Source: an uncultured Holophagales bacterium (lineage in GTDB: Bacteria; Acidobacteriota; Thermoanaerobaculia; Multivoradales; UBA5704). Taken from it: DNA of 64,000 nt. Numbering within the stretch: the stretch's first letter is position 1; each line of letters begins with the position of its first letter. The notes beneath the pieces were generated by a model. The model saw only the letters and a list, made by a program, of their open reading frames with translations. It searched no databases and was not told where the DNA came from. The stretch lies in contig CAWJGT010000011.1 of assembly GCA_963842525.1 (NCBI GenBank), positions 128,001-192,000 on the forward strand. Direction: 5' to 3'. The position numbers and the translations under genes were made by a program. This document shows, one piece after another, positions 10,919 through 51,235 of this stretch.

Positions 10919-11379
10919 TCTTATACGACCGGGAACTGACGCAAGGGACTTCACACAACTCACGGCAAGTCACTGACTTGCCGTGAGTTGAGCCCTCCTT
11001 CCAGGACGCCTTATACCCGATTTTCCGCCGCAGATCGCTCCTTTGCACCAGTCCCAGTCGAGCTTCTCTGACGCATAAGAACTTCCCGTGTTCCTGAAAC
11101 ACGAAGCGCACGTAGCGTCAGATGCGAACTGCCCAACCTCCTTCGCTCGTCGAGCATGACGTAGTTGCGAATCTCGAGGCACAGGGTCACCAGAATACCG
11201 ATCCACGAGCCCTGGCGGTCTTGACGCGGATACTCAAGAGATGTAGGGTGGCTAAGTAGAAGAGGATAAGCACCTTGCACGCACGACACTCTGGGACCGG
11301 CCGTGGAGTCAACCCGCAAGGTTGTGTCGCATACGCCTGTGGACGGGGTGCCGGCGAATATGTGAGGCAGAGGTTAGCA
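10919..11379 (+). other. Conserved non-coding platform copy A (promoter + attI-like end)
   Basis: Colinear with 50785-51235 (blocks TCTTATAC, ATACCCGATT, TCTCTGACGCA, CCTTCGCTCGTC, GGTCTTGACGCGGATAC, GTTGTGTCGCATACGCC, TGTGAGGCAGAGGTT); hairpin 10956-10990; ends GTTAGCA at 11373. Confidence 0.75.
11221..11249 (+). promoter_or_regulatory. Sigma70-type promoter (Pc-like) in platform A
   Basis: TTGACG-N17-TAGGGT; same -35 and spacing in copies B and C. Confidence 0.7.
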
Positions 11380-11412
11380 GTCGGAAAACGCTCCGCCGAA
11401 GGAGTGCTTCAC

Positions 11413-11883
11413 ATGAGAAAGATAGTCCAGGGTATAGGCATCTACATAGCTATCGCAGGGGCCGGGATCGCTGTAAGTGGCGCACAAGGGAAAGAGATTG
11501 TCATGCCGGGCTTATCGTATGGCGATATACGCACGTCTGACTTTACTTTCAGGGAGGGCCCGGACGGAGAACTAATCGGACTGGGAGTTTTGATGGTGTC
11601 CATTGGGCTGGCGGCCATCATCATTCCTTCCGTTCGGCAGGGTTCGTGGCAAATTAGCGGCAGGGGCCTACTCTCGCGTTCGCCAGCCTTCCTCTGTTGG
11701 ATTCTAGGCGCGATAGGCATTCAGCTATCTGCAAAGGTGTTTGACGGATTCCCAGGCTATTTGTCAGCCGCTGCCGGCTTTGGGCTGATTGCGTTAGGAG
11801 CACGCCTTTTTGCTGAGGCAAAACGTGCGGAGTCACCATCTGCTACCTTGAAGCTGACAGGTCATTGTCGTATTTGGCGATGA
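11413..11883 (+). CDS. Cassette-like membrane protein, lower GC
   Basis: RBS AAGGAG, ATG 34 nt after the end of the GTTAGCA core; about four hydrophobic segments; 3' end runs into an oppositely oriented fragment. Confidence 0.6.
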   Translation: MRKIVQGIGIYIAIAGAGIAVSGAQGKEIVMPGLSYGDIRTSDFTFREGPDGELIGLGVLMVSIGLAAIIIPSVRQGSWQISGRGLLSRSPAFLCWILGAIGIQLSAKVFDGFPGYLSAAAGFGLIALGARLFAEAKRAESPSATLKLTGHCRIWR

Positions 11884-12095
11884 GGTGCCAATCCAGCACT
11901 TCGCCCGTGTACGCGTCTCTGCCGTTGCTTCGGAGAACGGCGGCATGTATGGCTTGTTTGTAGCTCGACTTGGTAACAGCGAGGTTGCCGCGCCCTCGGT
12001 CACGTCGGCAGTGGGCATGGGCCTTTCGGTCAAGCCAGCTCGGCAGCGGAGACCTGTGTGGTTACGAATCCGGGAGGGACGTACTTGGGAACCAT
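11843..12095 (-). pseudogene. Frameshifted, truncated cassette-type hypothetical gene (not in ORF track)
   Basis: Manual translation: MVPKYVPPGFVTTQVSAAE / WLDRKAHAHCRRDRGRGNLAVTKSSYKQAIHAAVLRSNGRDAYTGEVLDWHLIAKYDNDLSASR*; starts 44 nt downstream of the GTTAGCC core of copy D. Confidence 0.5.
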
Positions 12096-12138
12096 CGGGG
12101 TAGATTGCTACATTCGATAGCTATTATAGAGCACCTAA

Positions 12139-12309
12139 GGCTAACCTCACTTCTCCTCACTTCAAGGATTCACCGGCCCCACGCTTTCCAGTCTTACCCG
12201 TTGAAGTCTGCCGGTCCGTCCCACAGCGGAGGCGTTGGTGCCCTTTGGCAGTCCCGGCCGGCTGCCGATGCCCGACCTTACTTATATGAAGGGCGGGCTC
12301 CGGTGGCAA
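12139..12309 (-). other. Divergent/partial platform copy D
   Basis: + strand GGCTAACCTCACTTC(TCCTCACTTC)AAGGATTCACCGGC resembles reconstructed copy C GGCTAACCTCTACCTTAAAGATTCACCGGC; candidate TTGCCA-N17-TATAAG on - strand at 12309-12281. Confidence 0.45.
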
Positions 12310-12346
12310 CGTCGCCGCCTGGGACCCGCCCTCGAGGAGCGGACCC

Positions 12347-12619
12347 ATGCCCCGATGTCGTCTCCGCAGCGCCCTTCTCCTTCTGGCGATCCTTGTCCTC
12401 CTTCCCGGAGTCGCCGCCGCCCGGCCGGTTACTTCTGACTCCGGCGGCCCAGCCGCTCTACGCCCCCCCGCACTCTTCGCCGCCGTCCTTTCCCGCCTTG
12501 TCGACCTTGTCTCCTTCTTCTGGGCTGCCGACTCGGCGGACACGGGCATGTCCATCGACCACCACGGCCCGCCGGGAGAGACGGTCGACACGGGCATGAC
12601 GATCGACCCTCACGGCTAG
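12347..12619 (+). CDS. Small secreted peptide with two DTGMxIDxHG repeats
   Basis: RBS GAGGAG; signal peptide ending VAAA; 30-nt DNA repeat 12539-12568 / 12587-12616; stop directly after DPHG. Confidence 0.7.
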   Translation: MPRCRLRSALLLLAILVLLPGVAAARPVTSDSGGPAALRPPALFAAVLSRLVDLVSFFWAADSADTGMSIDHHGPPGETVDTGMTIDPHG

Positions 12620-12735
12620 CTGGCACGCTCGGGGACCGGAGCGCCGGAGCCGGTCTCCGAGGTTTCTGAATTGGGTGTCACAGAATCCCTTCCAGCGGCA
12701 ACTAAGTATCTAGAGATCGATGTGGAGGAGAGAGC

Positions 12736-13980
12736 ATGGAACATTCGCATCTGTCGCAGGAGACGCTCGCGAGGTGGCTGGCCGGCCGGCTGGAGCACGA
12801 GGCCGTGCTCAGCGAGGTCGTTCCTCACTTCCTGTCCAACTGCACCGTCTGCCGGGATCGGGTCGCAGAGATCCGCAAGCTCCAGGAGGAGGTCGGCCAC
12901 TGGGACGAGGAGGTGGCTGTCATCGAAGGGCAGGAGGCTCCCGAGCTGCTGAGGAGGATCGAGGATCAACCTTTCGCGGAGCAGGCCCGGCGAGCGGAGC
13001 AAGACGACGCCCTGCACACCTGGGGCCTGTGTCACCTTCTGCTGAAGAAGAGCCTCGACCGGATTTCGGACGAGCCTGCCAGGGCACTCGATCTGGCCGA
13101 TCTGGCCGTGCGGATCTCCCGGCACCTCGGCGAGGCCTATCATCCGGCCTGGGTGCTCGGTCTGCGGGCCCGAGCCTTTGCCTACCTCGCCAATGCCCGC
13201 CGGGTGCTCGGCGAGCTGCGCAGCTCCGAAGCGGCCTTCCGCAAGGCCGAGGCCTGTCTCGATCGCAGCGGGCTCGGGGACCCGGGGACCGAGGCCGAGA
13301 TCCTCGATATGAAGAGCTCGCTTCGACGTGAGGCCTTGGAGCTATCGGACCGTGCGCTCGCTCTATACCGGGAGGCCCGGGACACTCATGGGGTTGGTAT
13401 CGGTCTCCTCAAGAAAGGCAAGATCCTTGAGGAGGCCGGCGATCTGGGTCCGGCCGAATGGCTCCAGCAGAGCGCCGCCGAAATCGACGCTTCAGGCGAT
13501 CCTCGCCTTTCGACCTCTCTCCGGTACAACCTCGTGGGCTGCCTGACCCTGGCCGGCCGCCATTCCGAGGCGGAGCGGCTGCTGCCGGAGGTGCGGTCGT
13601 TGTTTCAGGAAACGGCGCAGCCCTTGGACTGGGTCCGGCTGCGGTGGGCCGAGGGGTCCATCGCCTGCGGGTTGGGGCGGACCGGGGAGGCCGAGCCCGC
13701 CTTCCGCGAGGTCCAGCGCGAGTTCCTGGACCGTGGCATGGACTACAACGCCGCCCTGGTCGCCCTCGATTTGGCTGGCCTCCTCGCCCACGAGGGGCGC
13801 ACCGCCGAGCTGAAGAGTCTCGCTGCCGAGCTTTTGCAGGCTTTCGAGATGCGGGAGATCTACCGCGAGGCGGCGGCTGTCTTTCTCCTTTTCCGTCAGG
13901 CGTGTGAGGAGGAGCGTTTCACCAACGAGCTCGCGCGTCACCTGGCCAGCCTGCTGCGCGAGCGGCGGAGGGACAGATAG
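12736..13980 (+). CDS. Helical-repeat (TPR-like) protein with N-terminal zf-HC2-like HxxxCxxC motif
   Basis: RBS GGAGGAG; 'HLSQETLARWL..HFLSNCTVC'; repeated 'ARAFAYLANARRVLGE..SEAAFRKA' helices. Confidence 0.75.
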   Translation: MEHSHLSQETLARWLAGRLEHEAVLSEVVPHFLSNCTVCRDRVAEIRKLQEEVGHWDEEVAVIEGQEAPELLRRIEDQPFAEQARRAEQDDALHTWGLCHLLLKKSLDRISDEPARALDLADLAVRISRHLGEAYHPAWVLGLRARAFAYLANARRVLGELRSSEAAFRKAEACLDRSGLGDPGTEAEILDMKSSLRREALELSDRALALYREARDTHGVGIGLLKKGKILEEAGDLGPAEWLQQSAAEIDASGDPRLSTSLRYNLVGCLTLAGRHSEAERLLPEVRSLFQETAQPLDWVRLRWAEGSIACGLGRTGEAEPAFREVQREFLDRGMDYNAALVALDLAGLLAHEGRTAELKSLAAELLQAFEMREIYREAAAVFLLFRQACEEERFTNELARHLASLLRERRRDR

Positions 13981-13994
13981 ACGTGCCCGCGAAC

Positions 13995-14424
13995 CAGCGT
14001 CACCTCACGCTGGAGCAGTGTCCCGAGACACTGGCTCAGCGTACGCTCCGCAAACCCAGCGTGAGCTCACGCTGGCACAGCGTGTCGAGACACTGGCCCA
14101 GCGCACGCTCCGCAAACTCAGCGTGAGCTCACGCTGGCGCAGCGTTCCGAGACACCGGCTCAGCGTGTGCTCCACAAACCCAGCGTGAGCTCACACTGGC
14201 GCAGCGTGTCGAGACACTGGCCCAGCGTGCGCTCCGCAAACCAGCGTCAGCTCACGCTGGCGTAGCGTCCCGAGACGCTGGCTCAGCGCACGCTCCGCAA
14301 ACCCAGCGTGAGCTCACGCTGGCGCAGCGTCCCGAGACACTGGCTCAGCGTCCCGAGACACTGGCTCAGCGTGCGCTCCGCAAAGCCAGCGTGCTGCTCC
14401 GCAAACCCAGCGTCAGCTCGCGCT
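13995..14424. repeat. Tandem array of ~62-bp units (three ~21-nt CAGCG-initiated subunits), about 6-7 copies
   Basis: Unit CAGCGTGAGCTCACGCTGGCG-CAGCGTCCCGAGACACTGGCT-CAGCGTGCGCTCCGCAAACC; no unique spacers. Confidence 0.9.
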
Positions 14425-14440
14425 TACGAGAGGTGCCCGG

Positions 14441-14962
14441 TCAGCTCTTGCTGAGCACAAAGTCGTCGAACTGCACTGTGAAACCGGGCTCCCCGCTGCA
14501 CGCGGGGCGAAGCTGAATGGACTTTGCCGCGTCGGATGTCGTGGCAGAACCGTCGAGTGCTGCCCAGTCCGCGGCCGGTGGCCCAGCAGCCGAGCCGAGC
14601 GGCTCCTCGCCTTCCGTGCATTTCTCGTCAGAGTACTGAAAGACATTGACCGAACAGAAGTACGATGTACCCACGGTGCTCCGGAGCCGAGCGCCAATGC
14701 GGTACCGCGTCTTTGCCTGTGCTGCGACACAGGGGCCGAGGATGGTCAGGCTGCCTCCGGAATTGGCAACAGCCTTCAGGACGCCATGGTCGGCTGGGTC
14801 TTGAGACAGCGAAGCGGAGGGAACTGCCGTCCAGCCCTTCGCGTCCTTGTCGAAGCCGCAGTTGCTTGCAGCTAGAAGGTTCCCGGCCGAATCGTGGCAG
14901 CTTGCGGCGGCCGGCGCAGCTCCGAGCATGCTCAGCAGGACGAGAGCGTTCAGAGAACGCAT
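14441..14962 (-). CDS. Secreted Cys-containing hypothetical protein (carbohydrate-binding-like fold possible)
   Basis: RBS AAGGAGG; signal peptide; 'GNLL..NCGFD..GW' start and 'FDDF' end. Confidence 0.6.
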   Translation of the reverse strand: MRSLNALVLLSMLGAAPAAASCHDSAGNLLAASNCGFDKDAKGWTAVPSASLSQDPADHGVLKAVANSGGSLTILGPCVAAQAKTRYRIGARLRSTVGTSYFCSVNVFQYSDEKCTEGEEPLGSAAGPPAADWAALDGSATTSDAAKSIQLRPACSGEPGFTVQFDDFVLSKS

Positions 14963-15162
14963 GATCCGCCTCCTTTTAGTTCGCAAGGCCCGTGGCGTGT
15001 GCAACATAGCATGCCGATTGGCCGCCTGCGGGGCACCGGCTCTGGCACACGCCTTGCTTGAGAGCCAGCCAGCCGGACGAGCATCCCAGGTCGTCTCCGC
15101 GAGGTTCGCGCTGGCGTATCGGGAGGGGACGCCGCTCCGGTTCAAGAAGGAGGAAAACCCTC

Positions 15163-15327
15163 ATGCTCAGGTGGGCCCTGATTTTTCTGGTCGTCGCGCT
15201 GGTCGCCGCTCTGGTCGGTTTCGGCGGTATCGCGTCGGGCGCGGCGGGCATCGCCAAGATCTTGTTCGTGCTGTTCCTCGTCGTCTTCGTCGTCTCGCTG
15301 GTCCTCGGGCTGGTGCGGCGGGCGTGA
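15163..15327 (+). CDS. DUF1328 (YtjA-like) small membrane protein
   Basis: '[35 protein letters not shown]'. Confidence 0.9.
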
Positions 15328-15408
15328 AGGAAGGCGCGGACCCAGCCGGGGTCCCGCGCCGTAGAATGACATCCGGAGCCGCCCGCCGGTCCTCATGAGG
15401 AGCCCGCC

Positions 15409-16575
15409 GTGGAGGCGGCCATGAGGTCCATGATGCTCGAGCCTTTCCGGCGGGAGCGGCGGTCCGAAGAAGAGGAAGAAGGGCAGTTCCCGCGCCCGAA
15501 TATCCGCCGCTTGCGGGACCTCATCCAGGCGCCGTTCGGCATCCGGTCGCTGGCGCTGACCGGCCTCTTCGTCCTCGCCGCCTTCTATACCCTGTTTCTC
15601 GCGCGCTCCTTCATCCTGCCGATCATCCTCGCCCTGCTGCTCAATTTCCTGCTCAGCCCGGTGGTGCGGGGTCTCAAGAACCGGCTCCGTATCCCGGAGG
15701 GGCTGGGAGCGGCGCTGGTCGTCTTCGGTTTTCTCGGCTCCCTGGGCTGGGGCATCTACGAGCTCTCGGGCCCCGCGTACGAGTGGGCCCAGAAAGCGCC
15801 GCAGCAGATCCGGCGCCTGGAGCGCAAGCTGGCCGAGTTCAAGAAGCCCGTCCAGACGATGAGCAAGGCGACCCAGCAGGTGGAGAAGATGACCGAGGTG
15901 GGGGGCGGCCCCGCGACGCGCAAGGTGGAAGTGCAGACCGAGACCTTCGGCGAGCGGATGTTCAGCCAGGCCACCGAGCTGGTCGCCGGAGGTGTGGTGA
16001 TGTTCATCCTCCTCTTCTTCCTGCTCGCCTCGGGGGACCTCTTCCTGCGCAAGCTCATCCGGGTGCTCCCCAGGCTGGCGGACAAGAAGCGGGCGGTGGA
16101 GATCGCCCGCCAGATCGAGAGCGATGTTTCCACGTATCTGGTGACCATCACCATCATCAACGTCGGCCTCGGGCTCGCCACCTGGGGGCTTCTGGCGTTG
16201 CTCGGCGTGCCCAACCCGCTGCTCTGGGGTGTCCTGGCCACGGTGACGAACTACATCCCTTATCTGGGTGCGCTGATCATGTACGCGGTGCTTGCCATGG
16301 TCGGCTTCCTCACCTTCGACACGCTCGGCCAGTCGCTCCTGGTGCCGGGAGTCTTCGCCGGGTTGAACCTCCTGGAGAGCTATCTGGTCACGCCGATGGT
16401 GCTGGGCCGGCGGTTGACGCTCAATCCGGTGGTGATCTTCCTCGGCCTGACGTTCTGGGGATGGCTGTGGGGGATCACGGGCGCGCTGCTCGCCGTGCCC
16501 ATCATGGTGGTGGTCAAGATCATCTGCGACCACAGCGAGCCGCTGGCGCCGATCGGCGAGTTCCTGGGGGATTGA
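15409..16575 (+). CDS. AI-2E family transporter
   Basis: Multi-TM; 'NYIPYLG', 'ESYLVTPMVLGRRLTLNP', 'FWGWLWGITGALLAVP'. Confidence 0.9.
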   Translation: MEAAMRSMMLEPFRRERRSEEEEEGQFPRPNIRRLRDLIQAPFGIRSLALTGLFVLAAFYTLFLARSFILPIILALLLNFLLSPVVRGLKNRLRIPEGLGAALVVFGFLGSLGWGIYELSGPAYEWAQKAPQQIRRLERKLAEFKKPVQTMSKATQQVEKMTEVGGGPATRKVEVQTETFGERMFSQATELVAGGVVMFILLFFLLASGDLFLRKLIRVLPRLADKKRAVEIARQIESDVSTYLVTITIINVGLGLATWGLLALLGVPNPLLWGVLATVTNYIPYLGALIMYAVLAMVGFLTFDTLGQSLLVPGVFAGLNLLESYLVTPMVLGRRLTLNPVVIFLGLTFWGWLWGITGALLAVPIMVVVKIICDHSEPLAPIGEFLGD

Positions 16576-16737
16576 TGCCCCCGGAGCAAACTGCCTGATC
16601 TACGTCCCCTTCTCCTGAGGCGGTGAGGTTTTGTCCCGTTCTTCCCCGGCTCGTGCGTCCCTTTCTTATGGAAGAATAGACCGTCGCGCGAGAAGCAACC
16701 CGCTCATCCACCCGACCAGTTCGAAAGGAGAGTGCTC

Positions 16738-18537
16738 ATGTCGTCAGCTCGTTCTCCCGAACCTGAAGGAGGCCGGACCGACCGTACCGATGCCGAAGAG
16801 GTGAGCCGCAGGACCTTCCTGCGCCTCGGCGCTCTCGCGGGCGCCGGGGCGTCGCTCGCAGGCCTGGGCACCGCCGCGGCGAGCGCCGCCGGGGTGGGGG
16901 GGCAGAGCGCACCGGCGGAGGCCCTGGAAGAGGCGACCATCGCGCAGATGGTGGCCGACATGGAGGCGGGCCGGCTGACGTCCGCCGAGCTCACCGACTT
17001 CTATCTCGACCGCATCGAGTCGCTCGACCAGCGCGGCCCGACCGTCAACTCGGTCCTGCAGCTCAATCCCCAGGCGCTGCAGCTCGCCCGCAACCGTGAC
17101 AAGGAGCGCCGGGCGGGCAACGTCCGCGGGCCTCTCCACGGCATCCCGATCCTGGTCAAGGACAACATCGACACGGCGGACCAGATGATGACCACGGCCG
17201 GCTCGCTCGCCCTGGTCGGCGCCTCCGCTCCGCAGGACTCCACGGTCGCCCGCCGGCTCAAGCAGGCCGGCGCGATCATCCTCGGCAAGGCCAACCTGAG
17301 CGAGTGGGCCAACTTCCGCGGCTTCAGCTCGTCGAGCGGCTGGAGCGGCGCGGGCGGCCAGACGCGCAACCCGTACGTCCTCGACCGCAACCCCTGCGGC
17401 TCGAGCTCGGGCTCGGCGGCGGCCGCGTCGGCCAACTTCGCGGCGGCCGCCCTGGCCACCGAGACCGACGGCTCCATCGTCTGCCCCGCGCACATCTGCG
17501 GCATCGCCGGCATCAAGCCTACCGTCGGCCTGACCAGCCGGGCCGGCGTCATTCCCATCTCGCACACCCAGGACACCGTCGGAGTGCACGGCCGCACGGT
17601 GGCCGATGCGGCGGCTGTGCTCGGCTCGCTCACCGGGGTCGACCCCCGCGACCCGGCGACGCAGAGGAGCGCCGGGAGGTTCCACACCGACTACACCCCG
17701 TTCGTCGATCCCGACGGCCTGCAGGGGGCGCGCATCGGCGTGGCCCGCGGCGGCGGCTTCACCGGCTACAGCGAGGAGACCGACGCCATCTTCGAGGCGG
17801 CCCTGGAGGCGATGGCCGATGCCGGAGCGATCGTCGTCGATCCGGCCGAGATCCCGACCATCGACGAGCTCAACGCCAGCTCGTTCGAGATCATCGTCCT
17901 GATCTACGAGTTCAAGCGCGACCTGAACGCCTATCTGGCCACCCGCACGGGCGTGCCGGTCCACACCCTGGCCGACGTCATCGAGTTCAACAACGACCAC
18001 GCCGCCCAGGAGCTCAAGTGGTTCGGCCAGGAATTCCTGATCCTCGCCGAGCAGGAGATCTTCACCGAGCAGGAATACCTGGAGGCCCTGGAGGCCGGCC
18101 CGCGGCTCGCCGGTCCCGAGGGGATCGACGCCGTCCTCGCCGAGCACAACCTGGATGCTCTGGTCGCTCCTACCGGCTCGCCGGCCTGGCCGATCGACCT
18201 GGTCAACGGCGACCATTTCCTGGGCGCCAGCTCCGGGCCTGCTGCGGTCGCCGGCTATCCGCTCATCACCGTCAACGCCGGCTTCGCTCACGGCATCCTG
18301 CCCGTGGGCATCAGCTTCATGGGGACGGCCTTCAGCGAGCCGGACCTCATCAAGGTGGCTTCGGGCTTCGAGCACGCCATCGACGCCCGGCGCGCGCCGA
18401 GGTTCCTGAAGACCATGCCGCTCGACGGCCCGAGCGGCGCCCACCGGATCGAGGCGTCCAAGGCGCGGCTGGAGCGCATGATCGACGGGCTGACCAAGGC
18501 CAAGGCCGCTCCGCTGCGGCGGGTCTTCGGACTGTAG
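16738..18537 (+). CDS. Tat-exported amidase-signature family amidase
   Basis: 'SRRTFLR' Tat motif; 'GPLHGIPILVKDNI', 'GKANLSEWAN', 'CGSSSGS', 'TETDGSIVCPA'. Confidence 0.92.
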   Translation: MSSARSPEPEGGRTDRTDAEEVSRRTFLRLGALAGAGASLAGLGTAAASAAGVGGQSAPAEALEEATIAQMVADMEAGRLTSAELTDFYLDRIESLDQRGPTVNSVLQLNPQALQLARNRDKERRAGNVRGPLHGIPILVKDNIDTADQMMTTAGSLALVGASAPQDSTVARRLKQAGAIILGKANLSEWANFRGFSSSSGWSGAGGQTRNPYVLDRNPCGSSSGSAAAASANFAAAALATETDGSIVCPAHICGIAGIKPTVGLTSRAGVIPISHTQDTVGVHGRTVADAAAVLGSLTGVDPRDPATQRSAGRFHTDYTPFVDPDGLQGARIGVARGGGFTGYSEETDAIFEAALEAMADAGAIVVDPAEIPTIDELNASSFEIIVLIYEFKRDLNAYLATRTGVPVHTLADVIEFNNDHAAQELKWFGQEFLILAEQEIFTEQEYLEALEAGPRLAGPEGIDAVLAEHNLDALVAPTGSPAWPIDLVNGDHFLGASSGPAAVAGYPLITVNAGFAHGILPVGISFMGTAFSEPDLIKVASGFEHAIDARRAPRFLKTMPLDGPSGAHRIEASKARLERMIDGLTKAKAAPLRRVFGL

Positions 18538-18643
18538 GAATTCCTCGGGGCGCCTCCTCGGGGGCGCCCCTCATCCCCTGCTCATCCTCCCTGTTTTCAG
18601 GCTTTCCCGCCGGGGCCGCTATACTCTGCCTCTGGATTCACTC

Positions 18644-20329: not shown

Positions 20330-20332
20330 GGA

Positions 20333-22116: not shown

Positions 22117-22131
22117 AAGGAGGTCGTCGGG

Positions 22132-25033: not shown

Positions 25034-25179
25034 CCGTCGGGGACGCTAGCAGAGCCCCCTCACCGTGTAAAGGTGACCAATGTCCTTACTTTGGACCTCT
25101 GTGGCCCCGCGTCATCCCGCACCGGCTTGGCAGGCAGATGGCACATCCTCCTCCGTGATACGGCGGACCTGTGGCGTTT

Positions 25180-25435
25180 GGCGGTCGACCTGCGGGTTGT
25201 CCAGGTGGACCCGCGGGTCCACCCGCGTGCCCCGCAGGTTGACCACCATGACCTGCGGGTCAAGCCGTGCGCCCCGCAGGTCGACCACCCTGACCCGCAG
25301 GTCAACCCGCGTACTCCACAGGTCAACTGCCCTGACCCGCAGGTCCACCCATGCACGCGGCAGGTCGAGTGCCCTGACCCGCGGGTCGACTTGCGTGCTT
25401 CGCAGGTCGACCGCCATACCTCGCAGGTCAGTCAG
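25180..25435. repeat. Degenerate 21-bp tandem array (about 12 units, GCAGGTCRAC core)
   Basis: GCAGGTC/GCGGGTC recurs every 21 nt; alternate units end TGACCC. Confidence 0.85.
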
Positions 25436-25436
25436 C

Positions 25437-40958: not shown

Positions 40959-40985
40959 TCGTTACTCTCAGAACCTAGTTCGCGC

Positions 40986-41056: not shown

Positions 41057-41089
41057 GTCGACACAGCACATTTGCAATATCGACGTTTG

Positions 41090-42477: not shown

Positions 42478-42519
42478 CAGCGCCTCCTATTGAATGTTGC
42501 ATTCACCATCTTCTCTGCC

Positions 42520-42612
42520 GGCTAACGCTCTGCGCTTGAGCGGCCGGCGGCAATAGACGCTCGGACATGACGAGTCGGTCGCCCGCCGGTCTGCTCCAAG
42601 CGCTGGTTAGCC
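42520..42612 (-). other. attC site
   Basis: - strand GGCTAAC cagcgcttGgagcagAccggcgg...ccgccggccgctcaagcgcagagc GTTAGCC: complementary cores, paired L boxes, extrahelical bases. Confidence 0.9.
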
Positions 42613-42621
42613 AGCAATCGT

Positions 42622-43074
42622 TCACTTTCCATCTGTCGGCTCCTCTGAGAGCACCTGGACGACAGAGTCGCCAGTCTTAACGAAACTGCGCTCTTCGTCG
42701 AGGTCCTCCCAGGTGCGCTCCTCGGTCTTTAGAGTCTCATACGTTGTCACCCATCGTGGCGGCTCAAAAAGTTTTTTTACATCGAGAAGGCTGCTATCTG
42801 CCACTCCGCCCACATTCACCTTTTTTGAGCGAAAGGTAGAAGCTACAGATAGCCTTGGTTCTACCCTAGTAATTTTGACCCGGACTTTTGGCCGCTCAAC
42901 GGACCCTAGAACCTCCCCGGAATCGGGGTCACGGATATCCTCTCCCGTGGCGTCAAGGACATCGAATCGCATCCCTATCTCAACACCATCACGAGAGCCG
43001 ATGTTGAGCGCCAGCTCCCTCGAGTTCAGAATGCGAGCGACTTTTCCCCGGAGGGGTTCCCGATTAGCTGTCAC
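42622..43074 (-). CDS. Cassette hypothetical protein, FlgT C-terminal-like beta domain
   Basis: 'GKVARI..LALNIGSRDGVEIGMRFDV..IRDPDSGEVLG'. Confidence 0.65.
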   Translation of the reverse strand: MTANREPLRGKVARILNSRELALNIGSRDGVEIGMRFDVLDATGEDIRDPDSGEVLGSVERPKVRVKITRVEPRLSVASTFRSKKVNVGGVADSSLLDVKKLFEPPRWVTTYETLKTEERTWEDLDEERSFVKTGDSVVQVLSEEPTDGK

Positions 43075-43565
43075 GGTTCAGTGCCTCCGGGCTCTGCCGC
43101 GCGGGTTTTCAGTCGGCGCTCCACATCCGCTACCTCTTCTGGTACAAGATCGCGCCAATCCTCCAAAGCATCTGTTACGCTAGCTCGCTGCTCGGTAACG
43201 AGAGCCTCAACTACGTCAAGCCGGGAATCTCCGGTTCCGGCAGCAGAGCGGAAGCGATTTACTGTCTCAGCAAGACGACCGAGACTCGCGTAGAGCCCTA
43301 GAACGCGCCGGAAGGCTGATCTCGCGGCGGGCTTTATCAGCTCCCGAGCTGCGGCTTCCGCAGACTGACGTCCGAAAATGTAAGATCCTGAAAGGCCTGC
43401 AGCGAGCGTCAAGAGTTGTAAAAGCGTGCTCTCTAGACTGCTCAGGGTCCGCTCCGCTGACACTACGATCAGAGTCACGGACCCTGCCACGGTGAATAAA
43501 AGCAACACTACCGCCATCCAGAAGGCGCTACGTTTCCACCTAGGTGCGCTCAGAGCCGGTTCCAA
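43071..43565 (-). CDS. Cassette 2-TM + helical hypothetical protein (first cassette of array C)
   Basis: Starts 18 nt after the GTTAGCC core at 43589-43583; coupled to next ORF. Confidence 0.6.
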   Translation of the reverse strand: MEPALSAPRWKRSAFWMAVVLLLFTVAGSVTLIVVSAERTLSSLESTLLQLLTLAAGLSGSYIFGRQSAEAAARELIKPAARSAFRRVLGLYASLGRLAETVNRFRSAAGTGDSRLDVVEALVTEQRASVTDALEDWRDLVPEEVADVERRLKTRAAEPGGTEP

Positions 43566-43596
43566 AGAGTTCCCCTATTGATGGCTAACCTCTACC

Positions 43597-45935
43597 GTAT
43601 CTGTTTACCGCCCTAGTGCCGCCTTCCCCGAGCGGTGGCACGTCCGCAAGGGCTTGAAGTTCTCTTCTCGGCATGGTCTAATGTCTTTCAGGCATGCCGA
43701 CTTACGAGGAACTCCTTCAAGAGAACTCTGAGCTTCGCCAAGACAACGGTGAGCTTCGCCAGCGGGTGGAGGAGCAGGAGCGCCAGATTGCGCACCTGAA
43801 GCGCCGAATCGTCGATCTGGAGAAACTTGTCGAGGAGCTACGGCGCCGGGGCAAACGCCAGGCTGCCCCCTTCTCGAAGGGAGATCCGAGCGAGGATCCC
43901 AAGTCTCCAGGGCGCAAAGCCGGGGATCAATATGGTCAGCAAGCGACTCGAGCTGTGCCCGATCACGTCGACGAAACCATCGTGGTGGAGTGCCCGCTGT
44001 ATTGTGAGCACTGTGGGGGTCAGGTCATTCCGCAGGGCGAAGCTCGCCAGTATCAGACCGATCTGCCGCCGATTCGGCCGGTGACGACGGAGTTCATCCT
44101 CCATTATGGGAAGTGCTCGGCATGTGGCCGGGAAGCTGTGGGGCGTCACCCGCGCCAGACTTCCCAGGCGTTCCGGGTCGGCAACGTGCAACTCGGTCCA
44201 AACGTGTTGGGGCTCGCCGCCTGGCTCAACAAGGTCGGAGGCTTGAGCTACGGCAAGATCGCCGCGTTGCTGAAGGAGCTGGCTGGACTGTCTGTGTCGC
44301 GCTCGGCCCTGTGCCGCGCGCTGCTTCGCATGAGTAAGAAGCTGGAGCCCTTGTACGAGGAGCTGAAGGCGAAGATCCGGAGCTCTCCTGTGGTGTACCC
44401 GGACGAGACGGGCTGGCGGGAGGGGGGCTATAGCGTGTGGTTGTGGGTGTTCACCAATCGCAGCGAGACGGTCTACAGCATCCAGCCGGGTCGTGGCTAT
44501 GCCGAGGCCTCTGAGGTCCTGGGGGAGGGCTTTGTCGGCGTGCTGGTGGCTGATGGTTGGGCTCCCTATCAGAAATTTGAAGAAGCGACTCATCAGACCT
44601 GTCTGGCGCATCTGTTGCGCCGTTGCGAGGAGCTGCTGGAGAAGGCGACAGGGGGTGCGGTGCGCTTTCCTCGGGCGGTGAAAGAGATCCTGCAGGCCGC
44701 CTTGGAGGCGCGAGATCAGCGGGACGCGGGCAAGCTCAGCGGCGAGGCGCTGGAGAAGGTCAAGCAGGACTTGGAGGCTCCAGATGGAAAGGCGTCTGTC
44801 GGGGCAGTTCACGAACCCCGACAACCAGCGTCTGGCTCAGCATTTGATACGTCACCAGGAGCAGCTGTTTGTCTTCCTGGAACGCACGGATGTGGAGGCG
44901 ACCAATTGGCCGGCCGAACAAGGGATTCGCCCGGCGGTCATCAACCGCAAGACATCTGGGGGAAATCGGACGGCCGAGGGGTCCCAGGCGCAAGCGGTCT
45001 TGATGAGTGCCCTGCGCACATTTCAGCAACACCAAGTCGGGACACTCGAGATCTTGCCCCAGCTTCTGCGCAGCCCCCAGCTACCGAAGCTTGAGGCAAT
45101 ACTTCCTGCGTCACAGCCACCGTAACAGTTCTCGCCACGAGTTATCCGTGGCTCCAGGTCGGTAGCCGCTCGCCCTCGTCAGGTCGCCTGGCCAGCGCGG
45201 ACGTGTGTCCAGGGAAAACCTTCCCCAAAAGTGCCGCTGACGGTAAACAGATACCATTTGAAGAAGCGACTCATCAGACCTGTCTGGCGCATCTGTTGCG
45301 CCGTTGCGAGGAGCTGCTGGAGAAGGCGACAGGGGGTGCGGTGCGCTTTCCTCGGGCGGTGAAAGAGATCCTGCAGGCCGCCTTGGAGGCGCGAGATCAG
45401 CGGGACGCGGGCAAGCTCAGCGGCGAGGCGCTGGAGAAGGTCAAGCAGGACTTGGAGCTTCCAGATGGAAAGGCGTCTGTCGGGGCAGTTCACGAACCCC
45501 GACAACCAGCGTCTGGCTCAGCATTTGATACGTCACCAGGAGCAGCTGTTTGTCTTCCTGGAACGCACGGATGTGGAGGCGACCAATTGGCCGGCCGAAC
45601 AAGGGATTCGCCCGGCGGTCATCAACCGCAAGACATCTGGGGGAAATCGGACGGCCGAGGGGTCCCAGGCGCAAGCGGTCTTGATGAGTGCCCTGCGCAC
45701 ATTTCAGCAACACCAAGTCGGGACACTCGAGATCTTGCCCCAGCTTCTGCGCAGCCCCCAGCTACCGAAGCTTGAGGCAATACTTCCTGCGTCACAGCCA
45801 CCGTAACAGTTCTCGCCACGAGTTATCCGTGGCTCCAGGTCGGTAGCCGCTCGCCCTCGTCAGGTCGCCTGGCCAGCGCGGACGTGTGTCCAGGGAAAAC
45901 CTTCCCCAAAAGTGCCGCTGACGGTAAACAGATAC
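43597..45935 (+). mobile_element. IS66-family element (single-ORF type) with tandem duplication of its last 680 bp
   Basis: TIR GTATCTGTTTACCG / CGGTAAACAGATAC; 8-bp TSD CCTCTACC at 43589-43596 and 45936-45943; 44575-45254 repeated at 45256-45935. Confidence 0.92.
43694..45125 (+). CDS. IS66 transposase (TnpC-like), frameshift near 44780
   Basis: Coiled coil, CxxC zinc ribbons, 'YPDETGW', 'ADGWAPY', 'HQTCLAHLLR', 'TNWPAEQGIRPAV'. Confidence 0.9.
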
Positions 45936-46048
45936 CCTCTACCTTAAAGATTCACCGGCACCCTGTTGCGCCGGCCTATCCTTCAAATCAGCCAGTCAGC
46001 TCTTCTGCTTCTCTCGGGCATGAGGGTGCCAAGTCTCAGGTGTACTAG

Positions 46049-46077
46049 ATCTTACGTCGTATACGTATCCACGTCAA
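46049..46077 (-). promoter_or_regulatory. Sigma70-type promoter (Pc-like) in platform C
   Basis: - strand TTGACG-N17-TAAGAT. Confidence 0.7.
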
Positions 46078-46356
46078 GACCGCGAGGTCGCTGGATATGC
46101 ATTCTCACCAGGCAGGTACCTCGCAACTCGCAAAGGCGTCCTCCTGGATGAGCGAAGGAAGCTCCTCAGGTGGAGCTGACACTACGCAGTATTGATATTT
46201 GACTCACCAGTGGAAGACCTATACCCCGGCGAAGCATGCCCCACGCAGGTGCAACAAAGGATATGCGGGCCGGAATCGGGTATAAGGGCGTCCTAGGACT
46301 GGTGCGGGGCTGTCCCGCGGCAGGACCGACCGTTTGTGGCAAACGGACCCCGCGGC

Positions 46357-46749
46357 AGTAGAGACGCCCCAGTCCGCAACCACAAACCAATCGGCGTGCA
46401 CCGCCGTCGGGGCGTCTCCGCGGCACCAACCACCACCAGTGCCGACGATCGCCACCAGGGGCGGATGGATAGCCGGCGGGTTGTCAGGTGGCAAGACCAA
46501 CCGTTCGTGGTAAATGGGGCTGCTGTGGAGAGACGCCCCGACTGTTTGCGCCCGGTAAGGTCCGTGGTCACGGACTGGGGCGTCTCTACGGGACTCTACG
46601 GGACAACAACGACCACCACTGCCGGCGATTGGGCTTTCAGGCCGCGGGGGTTGATCGCCTCTCTGCCCTCCGTTGTCCCGGCCCGTTGGGCCGGGTGGAG
46701 AAGAAATTTGCGCGCGCCACACGAGGATTCTCGGATGTAGTAGATCAGG
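46357..46749. repeat. REP cluster (GTAGAGACGCCCC/GGGGCGTCTCTAC) plus ~80-bp unit shared with 57128-57205
   Basis: Inverted copies near 46358 and 46571-46590; CCGGCCCGTTGGGCCGGGTGGAGA..CGAGGATTCTC..GTAGTAGATCAGG at both loci. Confidence 0.7.
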
Positions 46750-47660
46750 CCGACCACTGGATGGCCGGCGGGCGCACCGAGGCGCAGACCGGCATTCCAT
46801 CGGGGGCGGTGAAGCTCGAGCTCTCCGACCAGCAAACCCGACTGGAGCGCCTTTGCGAGCACTTCGGACGGAACGGCATCGAGGCGAAGCTTCGCCCGGC
46901 GAAACATCGCCTGGGGACCTGCACCCTTACGTCCCGTCCACGTGAGATAGACGAAGCGTTCACCGGGAGGGCCGTTGACGGCCGGGCCGCGGAAGGCGGG
47001 CACGCCATTCTTTTCGCAGACCTCGATGTGCGTCTCCCATGTCGCCTCCCGCAGGTCCGCGGGGATGGTGTCCTGCGAATCGCACCCGACCTTTTGCGCC
47101 AGGGCCACACGAATGTCACGGTAGGGGCCGCAGGTGGTGCCCGGCAGGCGCCGGCCGAGGATCCGCAACACGACGCGCTGCCACGACGGCCCCAACCCGG
47201 CCACTCGCGGCGGACGCGGGCGCTCGGGAGGAAGCAAGGCATGGCGCGCGCGGCGTTCGCGCGCAGCGGGCGACTTCGCTGCGAGGATCTCTTCCCGCAG
47301 CATACGCTGCTGCGCGCGGGTGTGGGCCTCCCAGCGGGCGCGGGCCTCAGGCACGCTGTCGATCAGCGCCTGGAGCTGAGCGGGGAGCTCCGGGGATGCG
47401 ATCGAGATCGCGAGCGTAGCCCGCTCACCAGGCGCTTTGCCAACCGCCCCGAGCGTCTCTTTCCGGAGCTCGACGAACCAGCGATCGTCGTCCCACCGAT
47501 GAAGCGATCGGCGTCCGAGAGGGATGCCATCGAGGGTTCCCTCGACGGTCGTCGTTGCCGAGAGGCTCCAGGCAGCCACCGCCGACGCCGGCACGACGAC
47601 GAACGCCGCCATGTCGGGGTGTTTCCGCTCGATGAGGACTTCCAAGGTCACCGGGTCCAT
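46745..47660 (-). CDS. DUF1905/YdeI-like + DUF5990-like fusion protein, frameshift near 46810
   Basis: 'VEGTLDG..ELPAQLQALI..AKSPAARERR' then 'FRGPAVNGPPGERFVYLTW..MFRRAKLRL', ending 'DGMPVCASVRPPAIQW'. Confidence 0.6.
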
Positions 47661-47779
47661 GAACACCTCGGGCTCATCCTATCGCCATGCAACACCTTCC
47701 GAACCCACATCGATTCGACGGAAGCGGGAGACAGGATCACCAGGAACCGGTGCCAGCTCACTGAGCCCTGGCTCCAGGG

Positions 47780-47808
47780 TTGACCGGATCCTGGAGAGAC
47801 TGTATATA
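47780..47808 (+). promoter_or_regulatory. Sigma70 promoter of TA pair (near-leaderless)
   Basis: TTGACC-N17-TATATA, 8 nt before ATG 47817. Confidence 0.5.
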
Positions 47809-47816
47809 AGATCTCT

Positions 47817-48092
47817 ATGAAGACTCTCACCATCACCGAGGCCAAGAAGAACCTGGGGCGCTGGCTGGCGGCTGCCGCCAGCGGTGATGACGTTGGCATC
47901 ATCTTGGGGGCTGACATCATCGCCCTCCGCAAAGTGGAAGTGGAATCTACAGACTTTGCGCAGCGTGAGTACGATGCGACTCCAGAGCAGGTCGCCGCCT
48001 TGCAGGAAGCCGTGGACAATCGCTATCGCCGGCTCAGGCGCTCAGGGAAGCTCTTGACGGTCACAGCGAACGAGCTGAGAGGACTTGTTTGA
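47817..48092 (+). CDS. Phd/YefM-like antitoxin
   Basis: 'MKTLTITEAKKNLGRWL'; overlaps downstream small ORF. Confidence 0.65.
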   Translation: MKTLTITEAKKNLGRWLAAAASGDDVGIILGADIIALRKVEVESTDFAQREYDATPEQVAALQEAVDNRYRRLRRSGKLLTVTANELRGLV

Positions 48093-48391
48093 AGAAGCTC
48101 CTCTCTCTCGATCCAAACGTACTGAAACGGCTAAAAAAGCTCGAAAAAAGGGACCGTGTCGAATGCTTGCTGGCCCTCGTTGAATTGGCGGACACTTTCG
48201 GTCAACCTCATAGCCACAGCGGGATTGGCATCCGCAAGCTCGGCGACCGTCTTTTCGAGTGTCGGGACAACTTGGCTTTGCGTTTCCTGTTTGAAAACCG
48301 ATCCGAAGACCTCTTCGTCTTTTTCTTGGGCAACCACACAGAAATCCAGAAACTTCTTCGCGCTGGCAGCTTGGGCTCAGGCCGCAAATGA
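48089..48391 (+). CDS. RelE-superfamily toxin-like protein
   Basis: 100 aa, basic; 'HSGIGIRKL..LFECR..LRFLF..LGNHTEI'. Confidence 0.6.
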   Translation: MKKLLSLDPNVLKRLKKLEKRDRVECLLALVELADTFGQPHSHSGIGIRKLGDRLFECRDNLALRFLFENRSEDLFVFFLGNHTEIQKLLRAGSLGSGRK

Positions 48392-48486
48392 CTTCCGGCG
48401 ACGGTGCGGCAGAGTCCGGCAGGATTCTCCCCAAAGCGGATCTCCAGAAAATGCTGGCCGAATTGGCTCGCCCGTAGCCGCTGCCG

Positions 48487-49551
48487 TCAAAGATCCGTGG
48501 CGTCGGCGGCGGTCAGCTTTTCGTTGAGCAGATAATCATCGCTCAGGTATTTGAGGATCGCGCGGCCGATCTTGGGATCGAACCGTTCCTTGACCGGCCG
48601 GACCACCACCCCTTCGCGGATGTGCTGGTCGGGTAGGGTGGTCTGGCCGCGGCTCAGCTCGGCGATCCGTTCGAGCGAGAACGGTCCGCGCTCGAGAAGC
48701 GGAACGGTGGCGACGCCGTGGTGCTCGCAGAGCGCGGCGAAGTCGTCATAGTCGAGGAAGTGCTCGCCCACGAGGACGTCGAAGGCGGCGAAGCCGAGCC
48801 CGTCGCGCTTGCCGTAGTGCAGGCTTTGCACGCGGCTGCCGTAGATCTCGCCGTAGACGATCGCCACCGGATGCTGCTGCTTGAGCTCGTCGAGCAGGCT
48901 GCGTACCGGCTCCAGGGTGGAGGGGAACCAATAGGTATTTGTGCCGATCTCCTCGGGCGCCGGACGCTTGCGCTGCAGCCCGTGCGAGCCGGCGAGAAGC
49001 TCGCCCTCGACCCAGCCGATGCGGGCATTGGTGCCGTGGATCTTCTCGGTCACCGCGACCTCTTCACCGGGCGCGAGGACTTCGGGGAAGTTGCGCAGGT
49101 TCTCGATATCGGTGTACCGCTGGAAGAGCGGATGGTTGGGCTCGGAATCGCCGGCCGAGAACTTCACCGGCGGCCGGAACTTGCCGATCCCGTAGTGCTC
49201 GCGCACGTCGGTCCCCACCGGCCAGCTCGGATCGTCGGGCCGCACCACCAGCCCGAAGGAGGGCTCGCCGCGCAGGCGCACCTGGCGGACGACGAGGTCG
49301 CGCTGGCCCTCGACGTTGGTGCGCTCGGAGAGGTAGCTCACCACGCCGATGCGCTCGGCCATCTCCCGCGGCAGGGTGCTGTCCGGCGGGATGAAGACCA
49401 CCCGCTCGCCGGGCGCGAACTCGGGCGAGCCGTCCTCGCGCTTGCGGATCACCGCCTGCCAACCCTTGATGCGGGCGAGGAAGAGGCGGTCGGCATTGGG
49501 GTGGGGATGGACGGATTCGATTTCGACGACGTTGGCGATCACCGATGACAT
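48487..49551 (-). CDS. ATP-dependent RNA ligase, DRB0094/Rnl5-like with N-terminal OB domain
   Basis: 'HPHPNADRL', motif I 'TEKIHGTN', 'YGEIYG', 'FDV', 'REGVVVRP', 'LK'. Confidence 0.88.
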   Translation of the reverse strand: MSSVIANVVEIESVHPHPNADRLFLARIKGWQAVIRKREDGSPEFAPGERVVFIPPDSTLPREMAERIGVVSYLSERTNVEGQRDLVVRQVRLRGEPSFGLVVRPDDPSWPVGTDVREHYGIGKFRPPVKFSAGDSEPNHPLFQRYTDIENLRNFPEVLAPGEEVAVTEKIHGTNARIGWVEGELLAGSHGLQRKRPAPEEIGTNTYWFPSTLEPVRSLLDELKQQHPVAIVYGEIYGSRVQSLHYGKRDGLGFAAFDVLVGEHFLDYDDFAALCEHHGVATVPLLERGPFSLERIAELSRGQTTLPDQHIREGVVVRPVKERFDPKIGRAILKYLSDDYLLNEKLTAADATDL

Positions 49552-49699
49552 AGGATTACCTTTCGGGCTTACACTATCGCATCGACCGGCGATTGCACCA
49601 CTGGCGTCACCGGATCTCGATTCGGGGCGCTTACTCTGGTCGTAGAAGGTATCTCCTTACCCAGAAGGGGTGTACACTGATATTCGTAAGGAGGATCAC

Positions 49700-49969
49700 A
49701 TGTCGGCGAGCACTCTGACCTCGAAAGGACAAGTCACGATCCCAAAGGAAGTCCGCGAGCGCCTCGGCTTGAAGGAAGGCGACCGTCTGGTCTTCCGATT
49801 CGACGATCAGGGCAACCTTCTGGTTCGGCCGGAGGCCCGGAGTCCTCTCGGGAGACTGCCCGGCCTTCTTCACCATCTCGCTGGAGAACGGCCGGTCACA
49901 GTGGAAGAGATGAATGAGGCGGTCAAACGGCGAGCTGCTGAGCGGTTCAAGGAGGTCGCTCGGCGGTGA
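49700..49969 (+). CDS. AbrB/MazE-family antitoxin
   Basis: 'STLTSKGQVTIPKEVRERLGLKEGDRLVF'. Confidence 0.9.
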   Translation: MSASTLTSKGQVTIPKEVRERLGLKEGDRLVFRFDDQGNLLVRPEARSPLGRLPGLLHHLAGERPVTVEEMNEAVKRRAAERFKEVARR

Positions 49970-50040
49970 TCGCCCTCGATACGAACATTCTGATCCGCCT
50001 CCTTGTGAGGGACGACCCCAGTCAAACGGCTCACAGCGAA
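49966..50040 (+). pseudogene. VapC/PIN toxin 5' remnant
   Basis: 'MIALDTNILIRLLVRDDPSQ' then similarity is lost; REP-like TGTCATCCTGAGCGTAGCGAAGGATCT follows at 50074-50100. Confidence 0.75.
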
Positions 50041-50326
50041 CAAGATCGACCGGCAGGTACTCCGGGTCCGTCGTGTCATCCTGAGCGTAGCGAAGGATCT
50101 GGGCGGCGGGAAACGTCCCAGAATCCAAGCCGGAGCGGACTCGCGGCCTCCCTTTCAGACAGGGAGAGGCTCGCTCCTCGTGGAGCCCGCCGCGAAGTCG
50201 CCGTAGTCGGAATCGAGGCTGCGCGAGTGAACCTGTTGTCATCTACGGCCGAGCTGTGCCGCCAGGGACTGCACACGCCAAGTCGTTGACTGCCAAGCAG
50301 ATTCCACCGAGATCGAAGCTCTGCTC

Positions 50327-50700
50327 ATGGACCCGGGACAACGTGCCACGGTCCATGGATCATGCGTCAGGGACCGCACTTCATGTGCCATGGACCGCAG
50401 TCAACGTGCCGTTTCCTTTAGTCAATGCTTGAGGCACCCGGGTCCGTGGCCCGTTTCCTACAGTCAATGCTTGAAGGCCCCGGGTCCGCGTGCCGTTTCC
50501 TTTAGTCCATGCTACAGGGCCCCGGGTCCGCGTGGCGTTTCCTGTAGTCAATGCTTCAAGGCCCCGGGTCCGCGCCCCGTTTCCTGTAGTCAATGCTTGA
50601 GGACCCCGGGTCCGCGTGCCGTTTCCTACAGTCAATGCTTGAAGGACCGCGGTCCGCGTGACCCTTTATCCAGTCCTCACCTGAGGGACCGCGGTCCATG
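50327..50700. repeat. 42-bp (2x21) tandem array, about 6 well-conserved units plus degenerate flanks
   Basis: Unit CCCCGGGTCCGCGTGCCGTTTCCTACAGTCAATGCTTGAAGG. Confidence 0.9.
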
Positions 50701-50784
50701 AGGCCTGCCGCGCGGACGACGTCGCTCGAAGTGCACGCGACGTGACGACGGGCGGAGGCAGTGCCGCTCTTCGAGCGGCCGGCG

Positions 50785-51235
50785 TCTTATACAGCCCTGT
50801 CGCGAGGGACTTCAGACGAACCGCGCGAGCTCAAGGGCAAGACTTGAGCCGCGTCCTAAAATGCCTTCATACCCGATTCCGTGACGTAGATCGAGTCCCT
50901 GCACCGGCCACGGTCTGCCCTCTCTGACGCAGAAGAATTTTTGGTCTGCCTGAAACGCCAAGTGCCTATAGGGCCAAGTCCCACCTCGCGAGACGCCTTC
51001 GCTCGTCATCACGACGTAATTGCGACTCTCAAGGCACCAGCCCGGCCAGAATGCCTATTCACACAAGCCTATGGTCTTGACGCGGATACGGAAAAGATGT
51101 AAGGTCAGCTAAATCAAGGAGGCTAAGAATCTTGCGCGCTCAAAACCCTTCGGCCGGCCATGGAGTCAACCGGCAGGTTGTGTCGCATACGCCAGCGCGC
51201 GGGGTGCCGTCGAATCTGTGAGGCAGAGGTTGGAC
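50785..51235 (+). other. Conserved non-coding platform copy B
   Basis: Colinear with copy A; ends GTTGGAC at 51229-51235; -35 to core distance 152 nt in both A and B. Confidence 0.75.
51077..51105 (+). promoter_or_regulatory. Sigma70-type promoter (Pc-like) in platform B
   Basis: TTGACG-N17-TAAGGT. Confidence 0.7.

Follow-up and report, generated by a model that had tools for sequence, protein, structure and literature searches.

A repeated element heading integrase-less cassette arrays in a Holophagales genome is probably an orphaned integron attI-promoter platform

A 64,000-nucleotide stretch of DNA from an uncultured Holophagales bacterium (the window; positions 128001 to 192000 of contig C11 in the 9.95-Mb assembly of the source genome, G000) carries three copies, A, B, and C, of a noncoding element of up to about 450 nucleotides (nt) that closes with GAGGTT. 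We consider it likely that this element is the platform, that is, the attachment site (attI) together with the cassette promoter (Pc), of chromosomal integrons whose integrase gene (intI) is transcribed toward attI, and that about 20 copies were orphaned in this genome by loss of intI. The preliminary description of this DNA had proposed a stand-alone promoter plus attachment site. Its cassette-facing predicted promoter, its attI-type junction at G/TT, and its same-strand cassette recombination sites (attC) all stood. Its stand-alone nature did not, because the element starts just past the intI stop codon, both in copies that retain an intI remnant and in relatives with an intact intI. Direct observation covers the repeat family with its boundaries, the remnants of intI, the attC arrays, and the matching layout next to the intact intI of relatives. 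The copies in the window consist of the following parts.

10920-11375, plus strand: platform copy A, from a profile match and alignment
10920-10932, plus strand: first motif of A, CTTATACGACCGG
10957-10989, plus strand: perfect palindrome of 33 nt in A
11010-11022, plus strand: second motif of A, CTTATACCCGATT
11140-11151, plus strand: CCTTCGCTCGTC block of A
11221-11226, plus strand: predicted -35 hexamer of A, TTGACG
11244-11249, plus strand: predicted -10 hexamer of A, TAGGGT
11370-11375, plus strand: terminal GAGGTT of A, predicted crossover G11373/TT
50786-51231, plus strand: platform copy B, from a profile match and alignment
51077-51082, plus strand: predicted -35 hexamer of B
51100-51105, plus strand: predicted -10 hexamer of B, TAAGGT
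51226-51231, plus strand: terminal GAGGTT of B
46299-45936, minus strand: upstream part of platform copy C, profile positions 84 to 470
46077-46049, minus strand: predicted promoter of C, TTGACG-17-TAAGAT
45943-45936, minus strand: target duplication GGTAGAGG, closing the upstream part of C
43597-45935, plus strand: IS66-family insertion with an 8-bp target duplication, GGTAGAGG, parting the promoter of C from its cassettes
43694-45094, plus strand: open reading frame (ORF) of the IS66-family transposase
43596-43587, minus strand: last bases of C, the second GGTAGAGG and then TT
43592-43587, minus strand: GAGGTT of C, with AGCC next

The three copies share colinear blocks, as had been described: A and B were 73.7% identical over 372 nt, and C aligned to both. 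TTGACG-N17-TAnnnT, with a spacer of varying sequence, was present in each of them (A, 11221-11249; B, 51077-51105; C, 46077-46049). The spacing between the -35 hexamer and GAGGTT also followed the described pattern, with values of 149, 149, and 138 nt for A, B, and C instead of 152, 152, and 141, a counting difference of 3 nt. The insertion sequence (IS) in C sits 2 to 10 nt before the end and predicted crossover of that copy, which, when the insert is ignored, terminates in GGTAGAGGTTAGCC. This IS66-family element (43597-45935) contains an internal 681-bp tandem duplication (44575-44874 and 45256-45555, 99% identical).

A genome-wide profile search confirmed that the element is multicopy. A profile of the whole element, built from five copies, yielded 22 hits in the assembly with nhmmer E values down to 1e-146, and a separate profile of the 3' module recovered 21 copies or fragments at an E value of <0.001; the repetition is far beyond chance. 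About eight of the copies are near full length. Their 3' ends coincide. Homology, which had been said to stop right after GTT, did so in 12 of the 16 aligned genomic copies (C counted with its IS ignored), where GGTT is the close and no conserved column lies beyond; the four exceptions end in GGTC, GCTT, or GGAT or diverge earlier. The bases after GTT (AGCAGTC, GGACGCC, AGACGCA, CGGCGGC, and others) are similar to R' ends in the attC sites of G000. Paralogous platforms would in this way locate the attI crossover with single-base precision. The 5' ends are uneven, with profile starts at positions 2 to 8, 84, 170, 179, 204, 209, 249, and 272, and at 292 to 303 in five copies, the latter just upstream of the -35 hexamer.

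The link to integrons comes from the sequence that precedes the fuller copies. Integron integrase genes were called with the TIGR02249 (integron integrase) profile at a cutoff of 265 bits. Where the end of intI was recognized, the element lies on the intI strand and starts a few bases past the intI stop codon. The copy on contig C9 starts directly after the TAG of an intI frame with the shortened end VLNRGGKGVLSLLDNL-stop. The piece adjoining the element corresponds to TIGR02249 positions 168 to 215, the integron-integrase-specific part of the profile, so the IntI-specific stretch is kept. A second piece (positions 94 to 174) lies 2.6 kb upstream with an IS21 element between the two; this intI has thus been broken by IS21 and carries an internal deletion as well. 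On contig C19, the copy is preceded by the last 22 intI codons, ending in IYTHVLNRGGRGVLSPIDDL-stop and 86% identical to the IntI of a relative over 22 residues. On contig C22, the gene upstream and the beginning of intI are still present at 89 to 91% DNA identity to the C9 locus, and a deletion then reaches the first motif of the element. At three further places (C13, C19b, and C25a), apparent last few intI codons only were recognized by eye, and the remnant at C13 was graded probable.

An intact intI was not found in the G000 assembly, in which no TIGR02249 match reached 265 bits. Searches by tblastn with the C9 fragments and the intact IntI of two relatives returned nothing beyond these remnants and ordinary tyrosine recombinases of at most 37% identity. 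Within the window, neither the profile nor tblastn gave an integron-integrase match, in line with the earlier statement that no intI is recognizable there, and no intI or remnant lies upstream of A, B, or C. The integrase that had been proposed to act in trans was likewise not found in the assembly by either search. Nor did any array in G000 have nearby an intact intI with the IntI-specific domain, which marks a complete integron. One candidate for a resident integrase, a 325-aa recombinase present in three identical copies near attC arrays, gives the best TIGR02249 match in G000. It was rejected, being part of an IS91-family unit and missing the extra domain of about 40 IntI-specific residues. 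The 2.9-kb unit occurs three times at 98% identity (C3:356327-359214, C9:1899673-1902559, and C25:537197-539904), and its recombinase is related to IntI. Since each copy lies 2 to 3 kb upstream of same-strand attC sites, the unit may prefer cassette arrays as targets. We also dismissed the idea that the upstream 300 bp is a decayed intI C terminus, which a frame of A vaguely like an RHSFA...IRT box had suggested, because the intI stop lies upstream of the element on C9, on C19, and in relatives, and because no six-frame TIGR02249 hit falls inside it.

Relatives carry the same layout beside intact genes. Sixty relatives, five of them from the same genus, were compared by BLAST, and intI was counted over 61 genomes, 15 of which exceeded the TIGR02249 cutoff. 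TTGACN-N17/18-TAnnnT was found downstream, on the intI strand, at 10 of the 12 intI loci that were read; at the other two, in G044 and G055, no match followed intI. In five genomes of the same family (f1: G012, G019, G009, G020, and G010), the distance from the intI stop to the -35 hexamer was 336, 320, 345, 314, and 302 nt, respectively, and that from the -10 hexamer to RGGTT was 128, 105, 105, 127, and 115 nt, with an alternative RGGTT in three of them. The corresponding stop-to--35 distances in G000 were 300 nt for the C9 copy and 304 nt for the C19 copy. G004, of the same genus, had 186 nt, and its contig ends exactly in ATAGGTT; G057, G046, and G042 had 505, 244, and 450 nt. Arrays of attC sites lay downstream, on the intI strand, in G010, G020, G009, G003 (two loci), G012, G044, G019, and G042. 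G045 showed the classical divergent layout, and G009 had one extra attC upstream of intI. The general layout is therefore as follows: intI stop, about 300 to 345 nt, TTGACN-N17/18-TAnnnT, about 105 to 130 nt, RGGTT, and cassettes.

The G000 element profile weakly matched the promoters of four relatives (E values of 0.0004 to 0.5), 314 to 325 nt past intI. The commonest 8-mers in the relatives' spacers were GCTTATAC and its complement, CGTATAAG, with 10 and 8 counts in nine stretches of 430 nt; the first GCTTATAC-like site falls 8 to 51 nt past the intI stop. A search for related loci with an IntI alignment returned only distant IntI proteins at 53 to 63% identity. Of two metagenome scans for the pattern, one was empty, and the other gave four stretches, of which one (contig L153) is a true platform copy of the C9 type, complete to GAGGTT and followed by different sequence, with no intI in the 447 nt upstream.

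Downstream of the platforms, attC sites were sought with a covariance model (R1) built from seven G000 sites and with a second model (R2) rebuilt from 29 hits. These are home-made models, not IntegronFinder, and were trained on the genome's own sites, so that their E values are rough; hand-written attC finders, which found only one site, were superseded by them. Over the whole of G000, at least 61 sites were detected (150 of 13,518 candidates scored). With the genome-wide scan included, at least one attC on the same strand (E < 0.01) follows 14 of 21 platform copies at a distance of no more than 3 kb. At the platform loci, every one of the 28 attC hits (E < 0.1) lies downstream and on the platform strand. 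As each locus was retrieved with 3 kb of upstream but 9 kb of downstream DNA, a bias toward downstream sites is built in, and only the strand result is unbiased. In the window, the cassettes that had been described behind the platforms were present after B and C, with two attC sites each; none was detected after A or between A and D, a possible further copy treated below, even with the filters of the model switched off. The arrays after B and C, with two attC sites each and no intI in the window, fit the definition of clusters of attC sites lacking integrases (CALIN). The lower-GC ORF described shortly after GTT starts 38 nt behind it at A and 20 nt behind it at B. The features behind the three platforms are listed below.

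11413-11883, plus strand: first ORF downstream of A, 156 aa, GC content of 0.56, no Pfam match
51251-51907, plus strand: first cassette ORF of B, Nmad2 domain (5.4e-24)
51870-51943, plus strand: attC of the first cassette of B, 65.6 bits with model R2, R' core interrupted by a group II intron
51932-53967, plus strand: group II intron inside that attC, outside the platform (Rfam domains D1 to D4, 96.2 bits; D5/6, 40.4 bits)
54001-54633, plus strand: ORF of the second cassette of B
54662-54738, plus strand: second attC of B, 43.7 bits
42619-40978, minus strand: cassette array of C
42619-42512, minus strand: attC of C, 38.2 bits
41063-40978, minus strand: attC of C, 31.9 bits
43565-43071, 43074-42622, 42477-42148, and 42151-41090, minus strand: low-GC ORFs of C, no Pfam match

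Cassette ORFs mostly lack an assigned function; one has the Nmad2 domain. The group II intron occurs in G000 in three near-identical copies (99.7 to 99.8%), each within an attC, which fits the attC-targeting group IIC introns. At 51931/51932, the edge of this intron, contigs from other samples part from the window sequence. The array of B also holds an IS110-family transposase gene (55648-56784), with nested hairpins in front of it (55422-55563).

Within the element itself, TTGAC and TAnnnT at a spacing of 17 nt were conserved in all 16 aligned G000 copies, and the best-kept columns are the -35 hexamer, the -10 hexamer, and the last 30 nt before GTT. This predicts a sigma-70-type promoter that faces the cassettes and presumably is active. 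The GCTTATAC-like motif stands at the very start of G000 copies (as CTTATACGACCGG in A), recurs near position 100, and appears reversed near position 165. Other conserved features are a GGCAAGTCRYTG box, GGTGCCGGCGAAT, and a GAGTCAACC-N4-GGTTGTGTC palindrome 65 nt before the crossover. We would guess that these motifs are protein-binding sites, whether for the integrase or for a regulator. In the leader, a good ribosome-binding site precedes an ORF of 29 codons, which remains intact in 8 of the 16 copies. A leader peptide was nevertheless rejected: variable sites numbered 22, 12, and 15 by codon position, and the ratio of synonymous to nonsynonymous codon differences (59:329) was no better than in the other frames (114:256 and 64:307). 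The upstream ~300 bp, for which the preliminary description had considered a mobility module or a structured noncoding RNA, showed no sign of either in Rfam, folding, and consensus-fold searches, and no evidence of coding was found in it. Judged from its sequence, it is the intI-to-Pc spacer, with a layout conserved in the family.

Taken together, the unit would begin a few bases past the intI stop and continue with a spacer of about 300 nt containing repeated GCTTATAC(GAC)-like motifs and conserved blocks. Next would come the predicted promoter, TTGACG-N17-TAnnnT, aimed at the cassettes, and a leader of about 125 nt that ends at the crossover G/TT of the RGGTT core, behind which the integrase would insert cassettes. 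We infer promoter activity, recombination at GTT, and the order of events from this arrangement. Whole integrons may have multiplied to about 20 places in G000, and intI may later have been deleted, truncated, or broken by an IS at every one of them. The spacer would often have been lost too, leaving promoter, leader, and attI. The outcome would be orphan attI-Pc heads in front of integrase-less cassette arrays of the CALIN type. Their promoters presumably still transcribe the first cassettes, and new capture or shuffling would need an integrase from elsewhere.

Several observations weigh against this history. Element DNA was detected by BLAST in none of the 60 relatives, the five of the same genus included, so the link to intact integrons is drawn from layout and weak profile hits, not from sequence identity. 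Seven of the 21 copies, A among them, have no detectable attC behind them. In A, B, and the C22 copy, the start of homology falls no more than about 10 nt from the same first motif, and intI is absent; this is tidier than random deletion predicts. A consensus promoter scan accepted only C (9 of 12), A and B failing at the -10 hexamer, so that the promoter call draws on conservation alone. Finally, the assembly is 96% complete and consists of 34 contigs, and an intact intI could therefore lie in a gap.

In another reading, the promoter-attI modules persist as functional sites for accepting and expressing cassettes, and one integrase encoded elsewhere serves many of them in trans. G020, which belongs to another genus, gives this reading its best case. 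It has a single intI above the cutoff, intact and scoring 475.7 bits, and its own platform recurs at 17 further places at 68 to 92% identity, many of which span only the region from about the -35 hexamer to the end of attI. Same-strand attC sites followed at 8 of the 11 places fetched, and all 17 attC hits were on the platform strand. Extra platform places were also present in G009 (about seven), G019 (about five), G010 (about four), and G012 (about one), from which it follows that multicopy platforms are a trait of the family; G020 has an integrase that could use them. In G000, conservation is highest exactly at the -35 and -10 hexamers and the last 30 nt before GTT, and 5 of 13 truncated copies begin just 5' of the -35 hexamer and so keep precisely the promoter-to-attI part. 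Against this stand the failure to find an intact intI in G000 and the intI remnants borne by full-length copies in both G000 and G020, which indicate that the copies stem from whole integrons that lost intI and not from the spread of an integrase-less unit. The motif conservation can date from the time when each copy still had an integrase, and no contig from another sample spans an attI junction, so that cassette turnover is not visible. We consider such shared use in trans quite unlikely. A wider form of the idea appears doubtful to us: that in this bacterial family one integrase serves a dozen or more dispersed platforms, that the GCTTATAC-like motifs are protein sites organizing or regulating them, and that G000 either lost its last integrase very recently or carries it on a replicon missing from the assembly. 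If true, cassette capture and expression could take place simultaneously at many chromosomal sites; should a single integrase really operate many platforms in relatives like G020, the usual view that an integron has one platform would have to be broadened.

It would be very improbable, in our judgment, that the element is a portable promoter module or ORF-less promoter cassette copied on its own, with the GTT end as its own cassette boundary instead of attI. In G020, the promoter part and an adjacent GCTCATACAGCGG motif occur four times on one strand over 6.5 kb, each copy before an ORF (locus L144, G020:C16:424000-439000), and no attC was detected near this repeat, which hints that the promoter has been reused on its own there. 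Two G000 copies lie 2 kb apart on the same strand (C19:514749 and C19:516747), and ORF-less cassettes with promoters are found in Treponema integrons, according to the consulted part of a review (PMC8876359). Yet the attC model gave no hit in the leader, no attC R' site precedes the 5' edges of the truncated copies, and full-length copies join intI directly. Hardly credible at all is a miniature transposon or IS end, or a structured noncoding RNA or riboswitch leader, even though the element is multicopy and noncoding, each of the six frames of A and B being interrupted by stops, and has a perfect 33-nt palindrome in some copies. Inspection by eye of the ends of A, B, and other copies revealed neither terminal inverted repeats nor target duplications, and a plasmid collection contained no match to the element. 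As to RNA, Rfam returned no match to the element even at an E value of ≤1, and the leader of A folded no better than shuffled sequences (z score of +0.52). Consensus folds were weak and had no covariation support, with -5.95 kcal/mol for the leader (covariation term of +0.1) and -2.58 kcal/mol for the 5' part.

If the copies are indeed platforms orphaned by intI loss, as we favor, they can be set against known systems. They are like the class 1 platform (attI1 plus Pc) in that a cassette-facing predicted promoter lies upstream of a G/TT joining site. Class 1 integrons have a divergent intI1 that contains Pc and an attI1 of about 65 bp, which a short ORF overlaps; integrase-binding sites in the form of accessory direct repeats are also present. 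Here, in contrast, the predicted Pc comes after intI, and the 29-codon leader ORF has no coding signature. Another likeness is to the Treponema denticola type (the "inverted integron-integrase group"). In Treponema-type integrons, intI, attI, and cassettes are codirectional and attI lies beyond the 3' end of intI, as stated in the text available to us (PMC3607928, PMC4889954). The attC arrays of the relatives are likewise downstream of intI on the same strand. The present element differs in the ~450 nt from intI stop to crossover, with an internal predicted promoter and repeated GCTTATAC-like motifs, in that every G000 copy is without a working intI, and in that the host is not a spirochete.

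Cury et al. (2016) define a CALIN as at least two attC sites with no nearby intI and, in the portion of that article consulted, give loss of intI as one proposed origin (iii), report intI pseudogenes near 15 of 279 CALIN, and treat attI as unknown for most integrons and not searchable (PMC4889954). The arrays after B and C are like CALIN in having at least two attC sites without a nearby intI. They differ from those described in that arrays in G000 keep a recognizable attI-promoter head, and that a single genome holds a family of about 20 such heads. The kept head would show directly that the arrays derive from complete integrons and that origin (iii) applies in G000 on a large scale. Many of the integrase-less arrays here would then be beheaded integrons rather than secondary-site insertions, and the family bears on the origin of such arrays. 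Codirectional intI, CALIN, and intI loss are already in print. In the parts of the sources consulted, descriptions of attI and cassette promoters beyond class 1 cover very few integrons (PMC4889954, PMC9024848). A limited body of open-access text, supplements excluded, yielded no description of a patterned intI-attI region this long (about 450 nt) or of genomes with many orphan platforms. The large patterned region between intI and attI revealed here is a candidate for binding by the integrase or a regulator.

The possible additional copy, D, is as follows.

12309-12139, minus strand: D, possible very diverged platform facing A, with TTGCCA-N17-TATAAG, GCCGGTGAATCC, and GAGGTTAGCC

D had been described as a weaker fourth copy, which could not be confirmed: it was neither significant in nor recovered by the genome-wide search. 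It resembles the last 70 nt of the family, scoring 6.2 bits against the 3'-module profile (E value of 0.0018 in a 1.2-kb search). A and D face each other across 760 bp (11376-12138) of 56% GC that are free of attC, with the edges GTTAGCA... and ...GGCTAAC.

Other repeats were noted in the window. A 29-nt sequence like a repetitive extragenic palindrome (REP) lies just 5' of A (10880-10908) and recurs at 10 further places in G000 with 93 to 100% identity. About eight tandem 42-nt units occupy 50347-50704, directly 5' of B. Runs of 21-nt repeats (25166-25430) and of 62-nt repeats (13933-14447) are located within ORFs, far from the platforms.

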